Positions 13,228 to 38,540 of a stretch of DNA of 64,000 nt are shown piece by piece. Source of the DNA: a virus. Where the stretch lies: the UHGV virus genome UHGV-0036853; one strand, given 5' to 3'. The notes beneath the pieces are model-generated. The model was not told the origin of the DNA and searched no databases. It saw only the letters and a program-made list of their open reading frames with translations. How positions within the stretch are numbered: the stretch's first letter is position 1; each line of letters opens with the position of its first letter. The position numbers and the translations under genes were made by a program.

Positions 13228-14325
13228 AAAATTTACACGAATAAGCTCTGTTGATAGACGATCTCCCTTGAATTTGTGGTCAATTTCGTCTAAATCCGGT
13301 TGCTCTACGATTGATGCGATGTACGTCGAGAAACTTTCTAAGGCGTCTCGCATCTCGTCCATATAATCGTGCCGGTCGTAGACCCGATCTATCCCCTCAA
13401 GACTGTGGTTCATGATTTTGCGTGATACCTCCTGGCTTATGCCTAATGCTGGGAAGTAACTACGCGCAGTACGGCGCAAATCTCGGGGTGTAAATGGCTC
13501 AAGCTCCATCAGTTCTGGTCTTTCCAGAATACGACGTAATGCCTGGGCTATTGCCACTTTGGACATAGGAAGGTCTTTCCCGATTTTTTTATTCGAAGGC
13601 ACGAGCCACTGGCTGTCTTTACCGTATTCGAACAACTCTTCAATGCATGTGCGCATTAATGTGCTTAAAGGCAGCGAATGCTCACGTGCTGACTTGTTTC
13701 TCTTGCCTTGATTCCAAACCCCACGCTTAAGATTGAACTCACTTTTTTTAGCCCGCAGTACTTCGTCAGGTCGTCTTGCTGATACAAGACACAGCCTGGC
13801 CGCCCATTTTGTACCAGCGCACACATTGAAGTAGTCCCATATATTCCAGAACACCCATACCTCTGCGTCGGTCAGCTTCCGCTCGCGAGGTGTGGGCTTT
13901 GCGCCACCGGCAACTTTGTTTAGTGACATATCGTTTAACGGTGACACGTCTATCATCCCCTGGAAGGCGCACCAGCTAAGGAACTGCTTCATCAGAGAGA
14001 AAACGCGGCGGCCCATAACAATTTTGCCATCCAGTATTAGTGGGTTGACCAGTTGGTTCACCATGAACCTATTAATGTCACTTACTTTTACATCGGCAAT
14101 GTGCGGCAAAACATGTATCAAAATACAATGAACAGCGATCTCTGGCCGACGTCTGGTTATCAGCAGAGATAAGCGAGTGAATAACATGAATGCGTCCGAG
14201 AATCTCATATCATTGCTAACCTGCGAGATCATAACGGCCTGCATTTGAGATGCTCTTTCGAGATACTCAATCGCCTCTTTTGAGGTGTTCTCCGCAGCGC
14301 GTGCTCTGTCAAAGCTATTTTTCAT
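13222..14325 (-). CDS. tyrosine recombinase / integrase
   Basis: C-terminal catalytic region with RDLRRTARS, NHSLEG and Y in DRHDYMD. Confidence 0.75.
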   Translation of the reverse strand: MKNSFDRARAAENTSKEAIEYLERASQMQAVMISQVSNDMRFSDAFMLFTRLSLLITRRRPEIAVHCILIHVLPHIADVKVSDINRFMVNQLVNPLILDGKIVMGRRVFSLMKQFLSWCAFQGMIDVSPLNDMSLNKVAGGAKPTPRERKLTDAEVWVFWNIWDYFNVCAGTKWAARLCLVSARRPDEVLRAKKSEFNLKRGVWNQGKRNKSAREHSLPLSTLMRTCIEELFEYGKDSQWLVPSNKKIGKDLPMSKVAIAQALRRILERPELMELEPFTPRDLRRTARSYFPALGISQEVSRKIMNHSLEGIDRVYDRHDYMDEMRDALESFSTYIASIVEQPDLDEIDHKFKGDRLSTELIRVNFS

Positions 14326-28995: not shown

Positions 28996-29229
28996 TCATT
29001 CAGCATTGCAACGGACTGATGAGAAAGCACCTACTCCTACCCATCGCCAGTTATAGATGCTACCCGCTTTGTATAAGGTATAGTCGTTCACTTTTTTAAC
29101 AGCATATATGGGTATGACTGTCTCCTGTCCACCAATGATAGCCTCACCATAACATATAGGTGTCGGCAATTTCTGGCAGCCAGTAAGAGAGAGAACAACA
29201 GCTATTGTTAGAAATAATCTTTTCATCAT
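28996..29229 (-). CDS. small lipoprotein
   Basis: signal peptide with lipobox LTGC. Confidence 0.5.
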   Translation of the reverse strand: MMKRLFLTIAVVLSLTGCQKLPTPICYGEAIIGGQETVIPIYAVKKVNDYTLYKAGSIYNWRWVGVGAFSSVRCNAE

Positions 29230-29236
29230 TTACTCA

Positions 29237-29845
29237 TCAGTTATACAGATTTCTATTTATTACCGGTACTCTGCCATTTACGCTAAAACTATGGCCGCCA
29301 TTAAGTTGGTTTACGAATATCGAGCTAACAGTATTTCCATATGCCGCATATCCATAAACCATTGTCATGGCTCCGCCCGGTACTGGAACAGCGAACACAT
29401 TCGCATATGTTGGGATTATCGCTGGTGGGTAATCAAAAACATGCCCTCCAGAGCTGTTCCACTCCGTATTATTAAGAAAGGTAAATGAAAGTGGGATATT
29501 TGCCGTATTATAGATTTCCTCCCCTTGTGCATTGAAAAAACTCATGCCCCAAGTTTCTTTTTTGGCTATACCTTTCGAAAATACGTATATCGTGGCACTA
29601 GAGTCGCTACCCTGACCTCCGAAACTGTAAATCACCTGGTTGTTACGCACTATTCTGTTGGCTATTAATGAAACAGCTTTCGAATAGGCAACAAAAATCA
29701 TCGGTGAACGATCTGGAGATATTTGGGTGTTAAACTCTGTCCCGCCGGACAAAGAAACAACCTGCTTTCTCTGAAAAACGATAGGAGACAAAGAAGGAGA
29801 CATCCAGACCTTCCCGTCAGATCGATATATCTTGCTTCCGTACAT
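29237..29845 (-). CDS. hypothetical protein downstream of tail fibre
   Basis: ORF; start overlaps upstream stop (TAATG). Confidence 0.4.
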   Translation of the reverse strand: MYGSKIYRSDGKVWMSPSLSPIVFQRKQVVSLSGGTEFNTQISPDRSPMIFVAYSKAVSLIANRIVRNNQVIYSFGGQGSDSSATIYVFSKGIAKKETWGMSFFNAQGEEIYNTANIPLSFTFLNNTEWNSSGGHVFDYPPAIIPTYANVFAVPVPGGAMTMVYGYAAYGNTVSSIFVNQLNGGHSFSVNGRVPVINRNLYN

Positions 29846-30099
29846 TATTTTTGAAAAACCAATATGTTTAAATTACCACTAGCTCCAGACCATGAAATGG
29901 TATTTCCAGAAACCGTAAGACTTGTGTATTTCCCATTGGTTACGTCCATTATGTAATAGTCGATTCCCAATCCCGCCTCAACATCATATGTTCTACTTCC
30001 AGAACCAGAGGGAGTAAAATAATCGAGGTAATAAACAGGGGCCAACGCATCGACCATCTCCTGTCTTGATGGCGACCAAACCTGTGCACCATAGCTCAT
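29845..30099 (-). CDS. hypothetical protein downstream of tail fibre
   Basis: ORF. Confidence 0.4.
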   Translation of the reverse strand: MSYGAQVWSPSRQEMVDALAPVYYLDYFTPSGSGSRTYDVEAGLGIDYYIMDVTNGKYTSLTVSGNTISWSGASGNLNILVFQK

Positions 30100-30189: not shown

Positions 30190-33100
30190 TCAGTTGCTTG
30201 TTGCCCCAACAGTACCGGCAAATTTCAGCCATTGACCTGACGGACTTCTATTACTACGGTAGTGATAAACGAGGATTGCGTTTGTCACTCCACCGTAGTC
30301 AGCTTTATGTGACGTTGTTAAACGAATTGTATAATCACCGTTAGGTAGATTAAAAACTTCGATTATAGATTCTGCTAATTCTACAGCACCAAATCCCGTT
30401 ATATTGTTGATACTGCCAGCATTGAATCCCATAGCATCGCCAAAGCCAATCCAATAACTTTTGCTAAATGCCCCATTTGATTTAAGGTGGCTAATGAATG
30501 TGGACAAACTCATGCCCATATCCCCACCAGAAACAGAGGAAGTTCGCACAGTCATGCTTGGAAGAGAACTACTCTTCACATAGGAACTGAGAAGGTTTGT
30601 TACCTCTGTTTTCGTATAAGCATTAAGGTTAGCCGCAGTCAAAGTTATATCGGCAGAGCCATCAAACGCCACACCAGCAATTTTCCTTGCTGTCTGCAAT
30701 TTTGTGGCGGTTGCAGCATTACCAGTAGTGTTCTGATTACCGGTCGTATTCACACCAGGTAAGTTAATATTGGCTGTACCGTTAAAACTAACACCACCGA
30801 TAGTACGAGCCGTTTGTAACTTCGTGGCTGAAGCTGCGTTACCAGTCGTATTCTGATTACCCGCTATATTAACACCCGGCAAGTTAATATTGGCGGTACC
30901 ATTAAACGACACACCTCCAATTGTTCTGGCTGTCTGCAACTTCGTTGCAGAGGCTGCGTTGCCAGTAGTGTTCTGATTACCGGTGGCATTGACACCTGGA
31001 ATAGAGTCTTTGGACGTATAAACTTGCGCCCATTCAGACCAACTGGATGCATCCGTATCTCGTCGCGAACGTACATGTACAGGCGCATGAGCACCACTTG
31101 TACCGCTCCAACCTATGAACAACTCACCTTCACCAACGGCCGTTGCGCCCTTAAGATGAAGCACATTCCCGTAAGTCGAAGGGTAGCCATTGTTATATGC
31201 CTCGTACATCTGCAATCCAGTCGCAGCACCTTGTGTTGTACCGGTGAGCGCAGTAACGCGTCCTCTGGACGTAATTGTTGGTATTGAAATATTCGCAGAG
31301 CCGTTAAACGACACCCCGTTAATAGTTCTAGCAGTTTGCAACTTGGTCGCTGTGGCCGCGTTACCGGTAGTGTTCTGATTACCGGCAGCATTAACACCAG
31401 GCAAATTAATATTCGCAGTGCCATCGAAGCTAACACCACCGATGGTTCTTGCTGTCTGCAATTTAGTAGCTGTAGCAGCATTACCTGTGGTGCTTTGGTT
31501 GCCAGCTTTGTTAACTCCGGGCAAGTCGATGTTGGCAGTTCCGTTAAATGAAACGCCACCAATCGTTCTTGCCGTTTGAAGTTTTGTAGCGGTTGCGGCA
31601 TTACCAGTAGTGCTCTGATTACCTGCCGTGTTTACACCAGGCAAATTTATGTTCGCAGATCCATCGAAGGCCACGCCGCCGATAGTTCTTGCAGTCTGCA
31701 ATTTCGTGGCGGTACTCGCATTGCCATTCAATGAACCAGTTAATCCACCAGTAACAGACAACGGACCTGAAACCGTCCCTCCTGATGTTGATAATGCACC
31801 TATATCCGATGGCGTAGGTTTGTATTTTGTATTGTAGTCTCGTCGCCAGCCTGGAGAATAATCTGTCCCGTGGTTAATATAAGTAAATTGAGCGTTAGCA
31901 GTACCACCACCGCTAGATGTTGTTGGTGTGGTAACGCGGATCGTCATTGCTGACTTTATCCCCATTACCTCAATTACTGCCCCGGCAAGATGAATATTGC
32001 CACAACCAGTATCAGTAATGATTTTGTTGTTGCCATACGACCATGAGCCTTTACACATCCAGTACGGATGATTAAACGCCCCTTGAGAGTCCAACCATTC
32101 GACAAACTGTGCCGTAGTCCAGTTTCCTGCTGTTGTACTTACAGAGCCTCCAAATGCTCGCCCAGCGCCAATATTTTTCGTGAAGGTATCCTTACCTGGT
32201 ATATCAGCACCATTCTGGTTCTTCGCCAATCGGCTATTCGCATTGTCATTCGCAGCTTTAACTGCCTTTGGAGTTGCAGCCAGTGATTCGCTGGTGCTAT
32301 CGACAGCACTGCTAAGTTTCACAACACCTTTAGTTGTAAGGCTTGCGTCTTCCATCGCAACTGCACCGGCAATCTCTTCAGCACGATCAGCGGCAGCTTC
32401 TGCACGGGTCGCAGCGGATTCAGCAGCAGTTTTGCTCTGAGATGCAGCCGTCGCACTGCCTGCCGCCTCTGTTGCTTTCGTGGATGCCGTTGAAGCACTA
32501 CCCTTCGCAGCTGATGCCTGCTTGGTCGCCTCATCCTTTGAAGCAGACGCCGAGGTGGCTGATGCTGACGCAGAACTTGCAGATTCAGCAGCCGCAGTCT
32601 TAGAGGAAGCGGCATTGTCTTCTGAAGACTTTGCATTTGTTTCAGAGGTTTTCGCTGCTGATGCTGAATTTTTAGCGGCTGTAGCCTGATTCGTCGCCTC
32701 AGTCGCTTTTGCGGTAGCTGTTGCCGCTGATGACGACGCGCTTTCCGCAGATTTTCCTGCCGCAGTTGCACTTGATGAAGCACTATCCGCACTTGCTGAG
32801 GCTGCGCTTGCTGACGCTTCTGCCGCAGATTTCGAACTGTTTGCAGACGATGCACTCTGCCCGGCTGCCGTTTCAGATGCTTTTGCGTTTGTCTCTGACG
32901 CTTTTGCTGCCTTAGACGAATTTTCAGCTTCTGTTGCAAATGATGCCGCCGCGTTTGCACTCGATGAAGCGTTAGCCTCTGATGCTTTAGCCGCATCCTT
33001 AGATGCAGAGGCACTGGACGCAGATGTGGCCGCCTCCGATGCTTTAGTCGACGCTACAGATGCTGATTCTGCTGCCGCGACATATGCTGATTCTGCGTTC

Positions 33101-33717
33101 GTTTCAGATTTTTTCGCAGCAGTTGCACTCGCACTTGCAGCACTTTGTGAGGATTCCGCAGCGGATGCACTTTGAGACGCTTGAGAGGCTTTTTCTCCAG
33201 CGGTATTGGCGCTTTCTGCTGCTGCGGCAGCACTGGCCGCCGCCTCACGAGCTTTGTCGCCAGCAGCGTCAATCGCATCGGTGTTATTTTTATACCACTC
33301 AACGTTTTCGTTGTGCTCGTTGACGATCTGCATCAGCGGCTTAACGGTCACTTCTGTACCGTCTTCACGCTCGATTGTCACCTCATCCAGCGCAGTCAAC
33401 CAACTGCGCATGGACTTGGAATCAGCCGACATACGCGACATTAGCGCAGTAAAGCGCGCGCTAAACTGTGTTAAGTCGCCTTCATAGGTCGTAATGATTC
33501 GGCACGGAACTTCAGACTGAGTTTCGCCGGTATAAGGTTCTGAGAGAACAATATTCGTATCGCTTGTTACGCGCTTGATCTCATACAGCTTATTGTCGGG
33601 GCCAATGACGATCATCCCCGGCAACACACCATTAGCTGTTACGTTCCAGGCTGTCCCAACCCCAACCAGAGTATTGCTACCCTGTGTAAATGTGATAGTA
33701 CCTTCCCTGTACCACAT
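30190..33717 (-). CDS. long tail fibre protein with Ala/Ser-rich stalk and tandem repeat units
   Basis: 1175 aa; about 8 copies of GVSFNGTANINLPGVN..GNQNTTGNAA.ATKLQTARTIGG; long A/S/E-rich low-complexity region. Confidence 0.75.
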   Translation of the reverse strand: MWYREGTITFTQGSNTLVGVGTAWNVTANGVLPGMIVIGPDNKLYEIKRVTSDTNIVLSEPYTGETQSEVPCRIITTYEGDLTQFSARFTALMSRMSADSKSMRSWLTALDEVTIEREDGTEVTVKPLMQIVNEHNENVEWYKNNTDAIDAAGDKAREAAASAAAAAESANTAGEKASQASQSASAAESSQSAASASATAAKKSETNAESAYVAAAESASVASTKASEAATSASSASASKDAAKASEANASSSANAAASFATEAENSSKAAKASETNAKASETAAGQSASSANSSKSAAEASASAASASADSASSSATAAGKSAESASSSAATATAKATEATNQATAAKNSASAAKTSETNAKSSEDNAASSKTAAAESASSASASATSASASKDEATKQASAAKGSASTASTKATEAAGSATAASQSKTAAESAATRAEAAADRAEEIAGAVAMEDASLTTKGVVKLSSAVDSTSESLAATPKAVKAANDNANSRLAKNQNGADIPGKDTFTKNIGAGRAFGGSVSTTAGNWTTAQFVEWLDSQGAFNHPYWMCKGSWSYGNNKIITDTGCGNIHLAGAVIEVMGIKSAMTIRVTTPTTSSGGGTANAQFTYINHGTDYSPGWRRDYNTKYKPTPSDIGALSTSGGTVSGPLSVTGGLTGSLNGNASTATKLQTARTIGGVAFDGSANINLPGVNTAGNQSTTGNAATATKLQTARTIGGVSFNGTANIDLPGVNKAGNQSTTGNAATATKLQTARTIGGVSFDGTANINLPGVNAAGNQNTTGNAATATKLQTARTINGVSFNGSANISIPTITSRGRVTALTGTTQGAATGLQMYEAYNNGYPSTYGNVLHLKGATAVGEGELFIGWSGTSGAHAPVHVRSRRDTDASSWSEWAQVYTSKDSIPGVNATGNQNTTGNAASATKLQTARTIGGVSFNGTANINLPGVNIAGNQNTTGNAASATKLQTARTIGGVSFNGTANINLPGVNTTGNQNTTGNAATATKLQTARKIAGVAFDGSADITLTAANLNAYTKTEVTNLLSSYVKSSSLPSMTVRTSSVSGGDMGMSLSTFISHLKSNGAFSKSYWIGFGDAMGFNAGSINNITGFGAVELAESIIEVFNLPNGDYTIRLTTSHKADYGGVTNAILVYHYRSNRSPSGQWLKFAGTVGATSN
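30680..31700 (-). repeat. intragenic tandem repeats (~110 bp units) in tail fibre gene
   Basis: near-identical DNA units encoding the repeated fibre motif. Confidence 0.7.
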
Positions 33718-33809
33718 GTTGAATATGCTCCTTGATTTGGCGGGCTATCCTTGCCCGCCATTAAGTAAGTACATACTTATTTTTACCGATGTAAATATTT
33801 TTTTCTACA

Positions 33810-36800
33810 TTACAGAAGGCCAATTCTTACTCGTAGGACGTTGTTATCGTCATAAACGTCAATCCGCTGACCATTTATGACCAGTCGCCCATTACCTCCG
33901 CTATTACCGTTGATCTCAAGCGTTCCATTTTTGCCGAACCGCCATCCAGATCTACCGCTAACAAAATTGGTAGATTGCAGATCGCCTACTTTTGCATTGG
34001 TGATTGTGCCATCCTTGATATACGCACCATTCATATAGGCGATACTGTTTTCGATAACAAATGGCGTGGTGATCTTCCCGTTAACAGAGTTGACCAAACC
34101 AAATCTGTCCGCCTGCACCAAAAACTGAGAAAGACCGGTGGTGTCGATACCAAGCGCAATACCGGCAACATACTTCTGCCCTCCGCTCGTTGAAGTCTCC
34201 ATTTTCAACGTCCACGCGGTTGAGACTTTTTTGTTGGTATCAGCAATGGCCGTTGCCTGCTGTTGAATTGTCGCGGTATTTCCATCCACCTCTGCTTTCA
34301 GAGTATCGATTCGCCCACTTAGAGCATTATCTGCCTGCGTTCTCGCTGTCGTTTCAGTTGTGACCGCCGCAGAAATGTTGGCTGCTGTTTGAGACTCTAA
34401 GTTTGTGATTTGAGTCGCCAGTGCCGCATCTTGCTCTGTACGCGTTTTCGTTTCGGTTGCTACAGCCGCTTTAATATCCTCTTTGTATTGAGAGGTCAGC
34501 TTGGTGATCTGAGATGACAACGCCGAGTCAGCATCAGTTCGAGCCTGCGTTTCAACTGCAACGGCCGCACTAATATCTTTCGCAGTCTGTGCTTTTAAAC
34601 TTGAAACCTCTTTTGTTAAAGCGGTATCACCATCTGCACGAGCCGTTGTTTCTCTGGCAAGAGATGCCTCGAGATCATTAGCTTTTGCTGTAAGAGACGT
34701 AATCTGAGTGGACAATGCACTATCGGCATCAGTCCTTGCCTTTGTCTCTACAGCAACCGCTGCGGCAATATCAGTTCCGGTCTGTGCTCGCAGGCTGTTA
34801 ATTTCTCGTGAGAGCGCCTGGTCAGCACTTGCCCTGGCCTCCTGCTCCTGAGTGATGGCAGCGGATATATCACCGTCAACCTTTGACTGAAGCTGGTTTA
34901 TTTGTTTGGCTAATGCAGAGTCCCCGCTTGCTCGAGCCTCCTGCTCACTACGTATTGCAGCAGAAATATCATCATCAACCTTTGCCTGAAGTTGGGTGAT
35001 CTGACTTGCCAGAGCCGAATCTTCCGTTGCTCGGGCTTCTTGCTCTTCCTTAATAGCTGCGACGATATCGTTGCTTACTTTCGACTCAAGCTGAGTGATC
35101 TGTGTCGTCAGAGCTTCATCGGCAGATGTACGAGCCTCCTGCTCTGTACTAATCGCCGCGCTGATATCTCCTTCAAACTTAGATTGCAGCTGAGTGACAC
35201 GCTTTGCCAACGCTTCATCGCCATCGGCACGAGCGGTGGACTCTTCCAGAATACTGGCCTTAATGTCTTCGCCAATTTCTACGCGAATTTCCTCAACCTT
35301 CGTGGCCATTGCAGACATATCATCAGCAAAGGTTTTCTGTGTTGTTGCGATCTTCGCGTTATTGACCATCTGCTTGTGCTGGTCTTCATCTTGACGAAGA
35401 GCCAGGTCAATATTTGTTTTGGCTAACGCCTCAATGTTCGTAGTCAGTTCTGCACTGGCACGATCGACCTCTGCAACCGTCTTTTTCATTTCTTCAACAG
35501 CAGCGGAGCTTTCCTCTACCGTTGACTGCAACACTTCCAGTTGTTTAGCGTTTGCAGCATCGCCTTCAACACGAGCCTCGCTTTCCTTAGCAATAAGAGC
35601 TGCTGCTTCATCTCTTGCAGCCTTTATTGCCTCGACTGTATTAGCGAGAGCTTTATCGTGTTCAGATACGGTGTTTTCGATTTCAACAATTGCAGCATCA
35701 GTAGCATCAATTTTTTCAAACGCTTCATTGACCTTGTCGATCGTTGCCGAAACCTCACCTTTAAGCTCGGTTTGTGCGTTCTCCAAAGCATCGCTACGCT
35801 CGTTGAATTTTATTTCAAAATCCGCGAGGTTATCGCTGAACTGCTTATCTAATTCAGCTATATCTTCCTTAACGTCGTTTACCGACCCCTCCAAAGATTC
35901 GACGCTCTGGTTGATATGCTCATTTAACTCGTCAACTGCTTCTTGAGAGGCTTTGCTGTTGATGTCCTCAAGCAGAGCCTGACCAAGCTCAGACGATGTA
36001 ATCTTACCTTCCAGGAACGACAGTACATCGCGAGTTGTCGCCTCTGTACCCAAGTTTGAGTTCGGAGGACTTAACATGCCGCGCTTGTTCGATGCTCGAA
36101 CCCAGTAATACCACGTTTCACTATCCCCAAGACCAGCATGTGTAAAGGTGGTGCTTGCAGACTCCGCGATCAGTTTCGCCGTATCCAGATTGTTGGTCTG
36201 GGATGCGTAAACATTAATGTGATCAAGGTCTACCGAATCTGGATTAACCCAATTTAGTATCACATTACGATAGTCTCCAACGGCCGTTAATGACGTTGGT
36301 GCATCCGGCGGTGTCATTGTGCCCAGCACCTGATAAACGGTACTGATAATTTCTGTTTTTTTACCGTTGAATGAAACCGCATACAGTTGGAAGTCGTAGC
36401 GTCCATTCTCCGCGACATTAACGATTTCGTATTGCTCTTCGGTTACACGCGCCGATTGCCAGTTCGATACATTGTTTTCATCAGAACGTCGCCAACTGAT
36501 CCAATACTCTGGAGATTTCCCTTCCCATGTTGCAGTCAGTTTTACTGACAGGTTTCCCGGGCTTGAGAGATAAGTCCCTTCAGTGATTTGCAAATTAGAT
36601 GGCTTGGAGTAAGTCGGGTCCAATACCGTCGTATTCTGCGGGATAAGCGTTGCACCATTGTCGATTGCCTCATATTTAGACGGATTGTTCTCAACAGCGG
36701 TGATGTCAAAGCTACCCGGCGTTTCCCCCTGCGCGATGTTAACGATGCGAACGCGCATAGGTTCGAGATCTGGTTCTGTAATTGTCCAGACACCGTTCAA

Positions 36801-38540
36801 AACAGGCGTTTCCGCTGACGACAGGGCTTTTGAAAACGTAACCTTTGTTATGTTTTCGCCAGTTTCAAGAACATCGCGTTCAACGATTTTGCCTTCCTGA
36901 TTCAATATCCGAATAAAGCTGCCGCTTTTAGCTAACGACACAGGCGCATCGAGAGTGATGCTGTTTTTGGTAAACTCCACAATTCGACCGGAGTTACGTT
37001 TACCTGCACGATATTTGTTCTGAATCAGAACGGTTTCACCGGGCATCAGAAATGAGGCGTCTAAGCCGGCAGTAAATGTAATTACATCCGACTCCATTCT
37101 GGCGGTATACAAAAGCCACAAACCAACTCGGTGAGCCTGGCCTCGGCTTGTACATCCAAATGCTACGACTTCTGTTTTACGCTCACCATAACGGCGCATT
37201 GCGTCCTGATCTTCAACGTACTCGATGTTTTGCTTATAACCGTCCTCCTTGTTGTTGTAGGTCACGAGCGCAACGGATGGGCGATCTTTACGCGCAGAAC
37301 CTTTATAGGTAAACAGTCCATCTTTGACGTTGGAGTTGGTAAACATCATTACCGGATCTGATGGGCTATCCTGCATGATGTTAACCATGCCACCAGCCCA
37401 AAACACCATGCCGCGGAATGCACCGGCAATATCCTGAATTAATCGGTATGCGTCTTGTCGACTGGTGATCTGCGTATTGATTGCAAAGCGTTTCTCTTTA
37501 CCCCCAAAGCCATCATCGACCTCTTCGTCACAATATCGACCAATCAGGTAGAGCTGGCCGAGGTCAATCATGGATTCCGACACAAATTGCCCAAGACCAT
37601 ACCGAGTATTGGTAAGCAAATCGTAGAGAATCCACGCAGGGTTTGAAGAAGACAACAGCTTAAAAGTACCGTCCCATACGCCGACATAAGTATTGGTGTA
37701 TTCGTTGTAGTTTGACGGCACTCGAATTTTGATACCGCGCACCAAATACGAACGAGAAGGCATTGTGCTACCAAACTGCTCTGAATTGACCTTTAAGCCA
37801 ACAAGTGCAGAGTTAGGGTAGTTCATGGGTGTATCTACAATCTCACCTATGGAATCAACCCATGTGTCGTTGTAGAGGTACTGGCTACTGTTATCATCTG
37901 TAAGACGAATCACCCTAACCTTGTATGCACGACCAGGCTTAGGTAGTTTCAGCTCATAGCTACGGTAATACACTCCTGTTTTCTTTGCCGTTAGCGTGAT
38001 ATCAACGCTTTTCTCACCTTCTGCCACTACATCAGAAAATGTTGCGTCTCCGTTGGCGATCTGGAATTTGTACTTCACCGTAGTGCCATTTGTATCGCCA
38101 GAGCTTTTATCAACGCTACGTAAAGAGGGGAATTTCATGATGACACGAACGCGATCAGCTTCATCGTTATCGATTGAAACCGTAACGTCGTGTGTTTTTT
38201 TAAGCTGAATATTTACGGACTTAGGCGTTTCAACAAAATCAAAACCAGCCATTGGCGTCTGGTCTTGTGAGCCGTCACGAAAATCCCATGTAATACCGCT
38301 GAAGTTGGAAGAGCCATCTTCATTCAAGATCGGTAAATCGTCGATGAAGATCGACTTTGCGCCATTTACCAGGCCACCGATAACCCCCTCACCAAGAAGG
38401 TCGAGGATGGCTGCCATAGCACGAGAATTGACAGTATCATCAGCTTCAACCGGGGTACGGCTGGAGCTTTTACTTTTCTTGCCACCAGCACCGGCAATAA
38501 GAAGCGGTAATTTTTTCTTCTTGAACTGTTCCATGTCCAA
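33810..38540 (-). CDS. lambda J-like tail tip / host specificity protein with C-terminal coiled-coil repeat extension
   Basis: NPAWILYDLLTNTRYGLG block typical of J-family; C-terminal ~30-aa repeats DISAAV..E..ART.AD.AL. Confidence 0.8.
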   Translation of the reverse strand: MDMEQFKKKKLPLLIAGAGGKKSKSSSRTPVEADDTVNSRAMAAILDLLGEGVIGGLVNGAKSIFIDDLPILNEDGSSNFSGITWDFRDGSQDQTPMAGFDFVETPKSVNIQLKKTHDVTVSIDNDEADRVRVIMKFPSLRSVDKSSGDTNGTTVKYKFQIANGDATFSDVVAEGEKSVDITLTAKKTGVYYRSYELKLPKPGRAYKVRVIRLTDDNSSQYLYNDTWVDSIGEIVDTPMNYPNSALVGLKVNSEQFGSTMPSRSYLVRGIKIRVPSNYNEYTNTYVGVWDGTFKLLSSSNPAWILYDLLTNTRYGLGQFVSESMIDLGQLYLIGRYCDEEVDDGFGGKEKRFAINTQITSRQDAYRLIQDIAGAFRGMVFWAGGMVNIMQDSPSDPVMMFTNSNVKDGLFTYKGSARKDRPSVALVTYNNKEDGYKQNIEYVEDQDAMRRYGERKTEVVAFGCTSRGQAHRVGLWLLYTARMESDVITFTAGLDASFLMPGETVLIQNKYRAGKRNSGRIVEFTKNSITLDAPVSLAKSGSFIRILNQEGKIVERDVLETGENITKVTFSKALSSAETPVLNGVWTITEPDLEPMRVRIVNIAQGETPGSFDITAVENNPSKYEAIDNGATLIPQNTTVLDPTYSKPSNLQITEGTYLSSPGNLSVKLTATWEGKSPEYWISWRRSDENNVSNWQSARVTEEQYEIVNVAENGRYDFQLYAVSFNGKKTEIISTVYQVLGTMTPPDAPTSLTAVGDYRNVILNWVNPDSVDLDHINVYASQTNNLDTAKLIAESASTTFTHAGLGDSETWYYWVRASNKRGMLSPPNSNLGTEATTRDVLSFLEGKITSSELGQALLEDINSKASQEAVDELNEHINQSVESLEGSVNDVKEDIAELDKQFSDNLADFEIKFNERSDALENAQTELKGEVSATIDKVNEAFEKIDATDAAIVEIENTVSEHDKALANTVEAIKAARDEAAALIAKESEARVEGDAANAKQLEVLQSTVEESSAAVEEMKKTVAEVDRASAELTTNIEALAKTNIDLALRQDEDQHKQMVNNAKIATTQKTFADDMSAMATKVEEIRVEIGEDIKASILEESTARADGDEALAKRVTQLQSKFEGDISAAISTEQEARTSADEALTTQITQLESKVSNDIVAAIKEEQEARATEDSALASQITQLQAKVDDDISAAIRSEQEARASGDSALAKQINQLQSKVDGDISAAITQEQEARASADQALSREINSLRAQTGTDIAAAVAVETKARTDADSALSTQITSLTAKANDLEASLARETTARADGDTALTKEVSSLKAQTAKDISAAVAVETQARTDADSALSSQITKLTSQYKEDIKAAVATETKTRTEQDAALATQITNLESQTAANISAAVTTETTARTQADNALSGRIDTLKAEVDGNTATIQQQATAIADTNKKVSTAWTLKMETSTSGGQKYVAGIALGIDTTGLSQFLVQADRFGLVNSVNGKITTPFVIENSIAYMNGAYIKDGTITNAKVGDLQSTNFVSGRSGWRFGKNGTLEINGNSGGNGRLVINGQRIDVYDDNNVLRVRIGLL

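Follow-up and report, generated by a model that had tools for sequence, protein, structure and literature searches.

Tandem-repeat units as probable spacers in the central and side tail fibres of an SSU5/Cyrano-type phage-plasmid of Escherichia coli

The locus beside its closest described relatives

The closest described relatives of the locus studied here are the tail-tip genes of the phage-plasmids SSU5 and Cyrano (pLF82). Cyrano is an induced siphovirus whose tail was measured at 259 nm, about 30 nm above the 230 nm predicted from its tape-measure protein (PMC9928086), and for SSU5 it has been reported that "gp22" mediates binding to the core of lipopolysaccharide (LPS; Kim et al. 2014, as cited in PMC12312913). 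The present locus lies in a 64,000-nucleotide stretch of viral DNA from genome UHGV-0036853, referred to as a whole as the window, and holds the genes of the tip attachment protein J, or central tail fibre, and of a side tail fibre, both with tandem repeats. These repeats are read here, with a probability of about 0.8, as structural spacer modules of two trimeric host-recognition fibres, the number of units changing rarely.

The 8.35-kb region with the two genes is 91.6% identical in nucleotides (nt) to phage Cyrano and 98.4% to the E. coli plasmid NZ_CP048306. It is matched by 593 plasmids of PLSDB, the majority of them non-mobilizable, and the near-full-length ones listed are mostly of about 100–120 kb; the full-length plasmid matches (n = 6) have the same or almost the same length, 8351–8354 nt. 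The J shaft has 170 matches in complete E. coli genomes, every one of them on a plasmid, and the long J allele (at least 95% identity) occurs in 167 of 5426 genomes, always plasmid-borne. Therefore, the element is an SSU5-type phage-plasmid, nearly identical to and syntenic with SSU5/pLF82-type plasmids of about 100–115 kb. The locus is its lambda-like tail-tip module, in which homologues of the lambda tail proteins M, L, K and I (PHROG families) precede J in the order M-L-K-I-J and the side fibre completes the set. The gene order is the same in Cyrano (CYRAN_20/21) and SSU5 (SSU5_020/021), the fibre N-terminus is conserved, and the window J is 98–99% identical to that of Cyrano and about 75–83% to SSU5-type proteins. 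Both genes are almost identical to annotated genes of known phage-plasmids, and their architecture is of known kinds. There are differences: the Cyrano fibre (1341 amino acids, aa) has a different middle, with five units and a Gp34_trimer domain as in the close relative P0120, whereas the SSU5 J (1385 aa) has only five regular units and the SSU5 fibre a different tip and a separate gp38-like gene, SSU5_022.

More distant systems share parts of this plan. The F2 pyocin (25vf, 25ve; PMC13455828) has a J-like hub, fibronectin-III (FN3) domains, a coiled-coil helical shaft, a related tip and a similar side-fibre N-terminus, but its central fibre beyond the hub comprises residues 819–1204, while the shaft of the window J alone takes about 575 aa with an array of ten 33-aa units. 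Lambda J (8iyk, 1132 aa) shares with the window J the hub, FN3 and Phage_Tail_Tip parts and the place in an M-L-K-I-J module; it is without the long helical shaft and has a further, LamB-binding domain at its C-terminus, the window J stopping at the equivalent of lambda residue ~971. The chain 9l9p_S ("Putative tail fiber protein", 1172 aa) has the 33-aa repeat family, a segment resembling the node and the same tip domain, with about three copies of the repeat, far fewer than the window J. In the side fibre, aa 451–668 resemble Mu S/S' (5yvq, 8ju3) and the module of repeats and knob is about 80% identical in nt to P1 S. Unlike in Mu and P1, the anchor and stalk are SSU5-type and no invertible segment, alternative S'/U' genes or U/Tfa-type assembly gene was seen beside the fibre gene, although no dedicated inverted-repeat search was made.

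Two repeat arrays of different design

The two open reading frames (ORFs), of 1175 and 1576 aa, lie exactly where an earlier note on this DNA, made from the letters alone, had put them. The J frame opens with a TTG at 38540, and an ATG at 38534, two codons further on, gives the 1574-aa form found in databases. An AAGGA ribosome-binding site stands upstream of both candidates, and the ATG is probably the true start. The earlier description of both products as host-recognition proteins was confirmed, for J by its set of Pfam domains, FNIII-A_GpJ, Phage-tail_3 and fn3 (E-values of 1e-29 to 1e-34) with Phage_Tail_Tip at aa 1424–1558, and for the fibre by PHROG tail-fibre families and the Mu S structure. 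The hub and FN3 domains, together with the place after M-L-K-I, identify J as a lambda-type TipJ protein; it is not the equivalent of lambda J itself, since with 533.9 bits it stays far below the NCBIfam lambda_TipJ cut-off of 1950 and it ends before the LamB-binding domain. Its best solved relatives by sequence are the F2-pyocin central fibre (E 2.5e-155), the J-like 9l9p_S and lambda J (E 2.4e-128). The J core is 94–96% identical among E. coli relatives with differing shafts, and the tip domain, which aligns with lambda J residues 839–971, has relatives in 1782 phage records.

About 575 residues separate the FN3 domains of J from its tip domain, and aa 870–1428 are free of proline. The array consists of 10 contiguous 33-aa units over 329 residues (one unit has 32 aa), with a degenerate extra copy at aa 986. 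Its hydrophobic spectral peak is 3.65 residues, the 11/3 period of hendecads (33 = 3 x 11), and that of the proximal shaft is 3.56; the hydrophobic core positions of the unit are 4, 11/12, 16, 19, 23, 27 and 30/31. The AlphaFold2 (AF2) monomer model gives one helix at aa 862–1054, a break at aa 1055–1064 and a second helix at aa 1065–1438, with predicted local distance difference test (pLDDT) scores of about 70–83 in the helices and below 50 at aa 1045–1068, around the break. The two helices are strongly acidic (net charge -29 and -24). The rise of an alpha-helix is 0.1485 nm per residue, and with this value the helices compute to about 29 and 55 nm and one 33-aa unit to 4.9 nm. The periodicity, the lack of proline and the AF2 model agree on a long helical coiled coil of the F-pyocin type between the FN3 and tip domains, as the earlier note had seen. 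Its 8–9 copies of a heptad repeat of about 30 aa beyond the core were repeats indeed, and only their count, length and heptad period had to be replaced.

Repeats homologous to the 33-aa unit are present in two solved structures, the chain 9l9p_S and the alpha-helical shaft of the F2 pyocin, and the shaft and tip of J match 25vf with an E-value of 1.1e-24. The equivalent pyocin region is a solved three-stranded coiled coil, named the "alpha-helical shaft" (PMC13455828), and by analogy the J shaft would also be three-stranded. The C-terminal third of J would then be an acidic alpha-helical shaft of about 575 residues and some 84 nm, followed by the Phage_Tail_Tip domain, and the ten units, of three hendecads each, would form its distal 329 residues. 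The measurement of the Cyrano tail may have taken in part of the tail tip and central fibre.

The side fibre carries seven units of 40 aa arranged 4+3, starting at aa 665, 705, 745, 785 and at aa 919, 959, 999. The final unit of each block is cut to about 27 aa, and a non-repeat knob of about 107 aa parts the blocks. Tandem Repeats Finder (TRF) recovered both blocks with a period of 120 nt (31322–31726, 3.4 copies, score 383; 30659–30996, 2.8 copies, score 373), while in J it picked up only the two most similar units (period 99, 34837–35045, score 218). Of the eight or so near-identical units of about 36 aa announced for the fibre, the repeats themselves hold; the number and length do not, and the near-identity exists at the protein level only. 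The long Ala/Ser-rich stalk is as described (37% Ala, 23% Ser over aa 151–490). Its clean periodicity peaks at 3.50 and 7.0 indicate a heptad coiled coil of about 45 nm, and it has a weak match to the N-terminal rod of T7 gp17.

Beyond the stalk, aa 451–668 match Mu S/S' strongly (5yvq, E 1e-16; 8ju3, E 1.2e-82). Part of the distal tip (aa ~1050–1151, within 30193–30642) is a diverged copy of aa ~500–615 (31870–32220), with 31% identity and an E-value of 4e-12 in BLASTP. These two copies of a Mu S'-like domain suggest that an older fibre acquired a second shaft-plus-tip. The 40-aa unit, knob and tip segments gave only noise in Pfam, with no match at E<=10, and the region of repeats and knob had no sequence match in the PDB at E<=10. 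The whole fibre had no match to Phage_fiber_2 (PF03406) or Gp34_trimer (PF21446) at E<=0.01, domains that relatives carry elsewhere. By contrast with this silence, a profile of the 40-aa unit (E<=1e-3) found it in 11,753 representative proteins, one of which, of 2342 aa, has as many as 15 copies. The shaft built of these units is probably all-beta. From base to end, the fibre would consist of an OB-like anchor, the heptad stalk of about 45 nm, the Mu S-like domains, the shaft of 40-residue units with its knob, and the distal tip. Each repeat would lengthen its fibre by a fixed quantum, computed at about 4.9 nm for a J unit and estimated at roughly 2 nm for a unit of the side fibre.

Unit number and DNA divergence among relatives

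Unit number differs among relatives in clean whole-unit steps in both proteins, so that the invariance named beforehand as a refutation was not found. In 120 fibre relatives the units were always exactly 40 aa apart, in blocks of 1–4 and 1–5 units. Fibres P0091 and P0053 are 98.8% identical outside a single 40-aa indel, P0014 and P0020 differ by 80 aa and three more pairs by 40 aa; such clean indels of 40 or 80 aa separate proteins that are otherwise 92–99% identical. In J, relatives with 10, 9, 8, 7, 6, 5 or 4 tandem units were found. The window J differs from P0123 (97.8% identity) by a clean gap of 66 aa, and indels of 33 aa separate P0149 from P0240 (99.1% identity) and P0124 from P0125. 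The proximal J shaft also varies, by indels of 7, 11, 18 and 25 aa at about aa 886–911. Differences in the length of the fibre stalk are mostly multiples of 7 aa (14, 105, 210), as an unbroken coiled-coil register would demand. No covariation of J length with fibre length was seen, one J allele going with fibres of 852–1647 aa.

A J homologue without any 33-aa units was observed in a sister group, loci L053–L078 of IMG/VR. Its ORF, from about 7001, shares residues 1 to ~1038/1118 with the window J at 70–74% identity, and this giant frame then runs on to at least 3369 aa without a stop codon before the fetched DNA ends.

The stability of the J array was assessed in 60 rows sampled across the ranking of the 167 complete E. 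coli genomes with the allele. About 95% of the sampled plasmids have an array of the same length as the query (a span of 1269 nt), in alleles that are 96.6–99.8% identical. Three arrays are exactly 99 nt shorter and one carries the insertion sequence (IS) IS1.

The DNA of the fibre units has diverged further than their protein. Fibre units are 88% identical as aa and 73% as nt, J units 47% and 51%, and both sets are far beyond chance. Aligned in register, fibre units share exact stretches of at most 19 nt and J units of at most 14 nt. Where two units share an amino acid they share its codon in a fraction of 0.36–0.37, against 0.34–0.37 expected from codon usage alone; synonymous sites between units are saturated. 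Moreover, each unit keeps its own DNA signature across relatives (unit 4 of the window is 100% identical to unit 2 of L072) and therefore there is no concerted evolution. Since synonymous differences between the units have reached saturation although their protein sequence is conserved, frequent slippage is unlikely. The earlier suggestion that the DNA repeats are substrates for slippage or recombination is thus not borne out by their nt identity, their chance level of codon sharing, their short exact runs and the constancy of the array. A slippage-like event was nevertheless found: NZ_CP027358 lacks 99 nt (window 34876–34974), flanked by the 10-nt microhomology TCAACCTTTG, which is common to the two most similar adjacent J units; it was the comparison with the closer relative L083 that gave this clean junction. 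What stands of the idea is this single event, and what falls is the frequency. Near-identical DNA copies with frequent copy-number differences, the marks of slippage-prone contingency repeats, were not found. Loss of J units happens, sometimes by a slippage-like route but rarely, and the locus is not a contingency locus. Changes of unit number would be rare in-frame losses or gains of whole units through short microhomology.

Several points weigh against this reading of the repeats as rarely changing spacers. The 198-nt J indel between the window and P0123/L080 has no microhomology at its junction. The relatives were gathered by similarity, which biases the module statistics. For the fibre, the AF2 model of aa 640–1175 (from an alignment of 22 sequences) has a mean pLDDT of 35.8 and is unusable, with short beta strands as its one suggestion. 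The trimeric state and the lengths are drawn from periodicity, the monomer AF2 model and homologues, and an effect of repeat number on fibre length, adsorption or host range is putative.

Table 1. Coordinates of the two genes and their segments in the window, with the evidence for each.
Feature	Position	Strand	Evidence
Side tail fibre, 1175 aa	30190..33717	-	PHROG tail-fibre families; orthologue of Cyrano CYRAN_21 and SSU5_021
N-terminal anchor: OB-like domain and basic stem (aa 1-150)	33268..33717	-	Matches to 25ve_A and 23gd_B
Ala/Ser-rich stalk, putative heptad coiled coil, ~45 nm (aa 151-450)	32368..33267	-	Composition, periodicity
Mu S-like segment (aa 451-520) and Mu S'-like domain (aa 521-664)	31726..32367	-	PDB 5yvq, 8ju3
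Repeat block 1: four 40-aa units, last truncated (aa 665-811)	31285..31725	-	TRF, unit alignment
Knob between repeat blocks (aa 812-918)	30964..31284	-	Relatives share the 134-aa spacing of the units on either side
Repeat block 2: three 40-aa units, last truncated (aa 919-1025)	30643..30963	-	TRF, unit alignment
Distal tip module (aa 1026-1175)	30193..30642	-	BLASTP to internal domain; cassette breakpoint
Tip attachment protein J (central tail fibre)	33810..38540	-	Pfam, PDB sequence matches, M/L/K/I homologues before it
J core, hub and fibronectin-III domains (aa 1-861)	35958..38540	-	Pfam and PDB sequence matches
Proximal J shaft, irregular coiled coil (aa 862-1020)	35481..35957	-	AF2 helix, hydrophobic period 3.56
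Conserved node of J shaft (aa 1021-1099), candidate side-fibre docking site	35244..35480	-	Conservation, AF2 helix break
Ten tandem 33-aa units, hendecad coiled coil (aa 1100-1428)	34257..35243	-	Unit alignment, periodicity, AF2 continuous helix
J tip domain, Phage_Tail_Tip / DUF1983 (aa 1429-1576)	33813..34256	-	Pfam E 1.2e-41

Cassettes, docking and neighbouring genes

The J protein is stable and the fibre mosaic. J proteins of 98–100% identity occur beside fibres of 852, 1175, 1218, 1255, 1341, 1345, 1385, 1390, 1429, 1432, 1435 and 1647 aa, and the 4+3 repeat module of the window was found in only 15 of the 5426 genomes. The anchor and stalk ends are common to about 90% of the sampled relatives, and the Mu S'-like domain to about 10%. 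The distal tip is swapped as a cassette in many plasmids, the break falling just past the last unit (query nt ~390, aa ~1046). Relatives carry alternative tips, either the self-cleaving auto-chaperone Peptidase_S74 or a separate gp38-like adhesin gene (SSU5_022); Gp38 domains were found in L080, and alternative tips at 13590–14514 of L080 and 3197–3733 of L082. The window fibre has neither Peptidase_S74 nor a gp38-like adhesin. The large differences between the fibres of relatives stem from such swaps of whole modules and not from unit number, and differences in host recognition would arise mainly in this way.

From this mosaicism comes the best-surviving alternative, which we still consider improbable, that the units are mainly recombination linkers, islands shared for the exchange of cassettes among P1, Mu-like, lambdoid and T-even-like phages, with length as a by-product. 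The module of repeats and knob is 76–81% identical in nt to fibres of P1-type plasmids of about 90–98 kb and, in part, to fibres of chromosomal prophages; breakpoints located by sliding identity cluster at module edges, including aa 701–751 and about 991; three kinds of tip (window type, Peptidase_S74, gp38-like adhesin) occur among relatives; and the 40-aa unit is very widespread, as its 11,753 proteins attest. The same figures cut the other way, however, because 76–81% identity with short exact runs makes a weak substrate between phages. The J array does not show this kind of mosaicism and is left unexplained, and a linker role is compatible with a role as spacer and does not exclude it.

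The fibre N-terminus raises a further question, that of where the side fibre is attached. Its aa 2–107 match residues 3–104 of the F2-pyocin side fibre PyoF13 (25ve_A; E 4.6e-4, family profile 6.4e-4) and it also matches the N-terminus of the distal tail protein 23gd_B. In the F2 pyocin the OB domain and basic stem of the side fibre dock on an acidic kink in the helical shaft of the central fibre (PMC13455828). The window fibre is basic at aa 83–108 (+3). Within the J shaft, the node at aa 1021–1100 has identities to the window of 0.86–0.96, against 0.19–0.84 elsewhere, and the sole predicted helix break (aa 1055–1064) falls in this sole conserved block of the variable shaft. Across loci, conservation of the fibre N-terminus tracks that of the node with r = 0.95, against 0.64–0.81 for other parts of J, in a comparison that has no phylogenetic correction and is helped by one outlier. 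It is conceivable, though we hold it tentatively, that the J coiled coil is docking rail as well as spacer, the side fibres attaching by their OB-like N-terminus and basic stem at the node (aa ~1021–1099). Docking on the shaft has been shown for the F2 pyocin and is a hypothesis for the window; the alternative is attachment to the tail-tip ring, the arrangement of Ur-lambda and T5. An attempt to locate the pyocin kink in the window J from alignments was rejected, since these are too weak and are confounded by the repeats.

Less likely again than the linkers is that the units themselves are binding modules, the J units or node docking side fibres and/or the 40-aa units binding polysaccharide, so that their number sets valency and not length. 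The likeness of the fibre N-terminus to the pyocin OB and stem region, which docks at an acidic shaft kink, and the pairing of an acidic J shaft with a basic fibre stem are in its favour, as is the pyocin kink TRDDADDGNG, which in a weak alignment meets the unit motif ARADGDTAL. Yet the units are predicted as unbroken helix with the sole break at the node, and no part of the shaft is less conserved than the 33-aa units. The resemblance to the pyocin is modest (E about 5e-4), the OB-like domain occurs in the distal tail protein too, and carbohydrate binding by the 40-aa units is conjecture. Weakest of all, and hardly credible, is a contingency locus whose tandem DNA repeats slip or recombine often, giving continual fibre-length variants and host-range switching: copy number does differ among relatives and one 99-nt deletion does lie on microhomology between adjacent units, but units of 73%/51% nt identity with exact runs of at most 19 nt, saturated synonymous sites and no concerted evolution, the same array length in about 95% of the sampled plasmids, and six full-length matches of near-constant length all speak against it.

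The genes that follow the fibre gene are an 84-aa ORF (29845–30099, minus strand), a 202-aa ORF (29237–29845, minus strand) and cor, and then come holin and endolysin genes; none of these ORFs (84 aa, 202 aa, cor, lysis genes) matches a fibre-assembly family. The 202-aa and 84-aa ORFs are homologues of SSU5_024 and SSU5_023, the longer one with 75% identity, and distant kin of "membrane associated proteins" of T1-like and Stx phages; neither has a Pfam or NCBIfam match. An obligatory role as cognate chaperone or as tip-bound receptor-binding protein was considered for them and rejected, since Cyrano, with the same fibre tip and J tip, passes directly from the fibre to the holin gene and lacks both ORFs. 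The analysis covered the tail-fibre region of the window; in Cyrano, ParA and toxin-antitoxin genes stand just past the lysis genes.

The cor gene (28996–29229, minus strand) encodes a 77-aa lipoprotein of the Cor superinfection-exclusion family (phrog_1119, E 2.3e-30), and SSU5 has Cor at the same place. Cor proteins block FhuA-dependent phages, and for this reason the linked gene hints that the central fibre may use FhuA. Additionally, IS elements (IS1203, IS2/IS100, ISEc23, IS1) were observed inside or beside the fibre or J gene in several related plasmids, and some of the relatives that carry them are probably unable to build functional tails.

SSU5-like phage-plasmids are common in Enterobacteria, as the 167 E. 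coli genomes with the J allele illustrate, and their host range is poorly understood. Variation of repeat number among relatives is a useful refinement but an ordinary kind of phage feature. The fibre units show how protein-identical repeats can be kept genetically stable through fully diverged codons, and the widespread 40-aa unit, with no Pfam model or sequence-detectable solved structure, is a gap worth filling. If side fibres do dock at the node, the number of 33-aa units (4–10, about 20–49 nm) would fix the distance by which the central tip reaches past the point where the side fibres arise, and would adapt the phage to how deep the LPS, O-antigen or capsule layer of its host is; this would be the first phage example of side fibres anchored on a central fibre with a quantised, evolvable offset. 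The corrected anatomy, with its hendecad quanta of 4.9 nm, its node, its pyocin-like anchor and its swappable cassettes, offers handles for engineering these fibres and for predicting host range.

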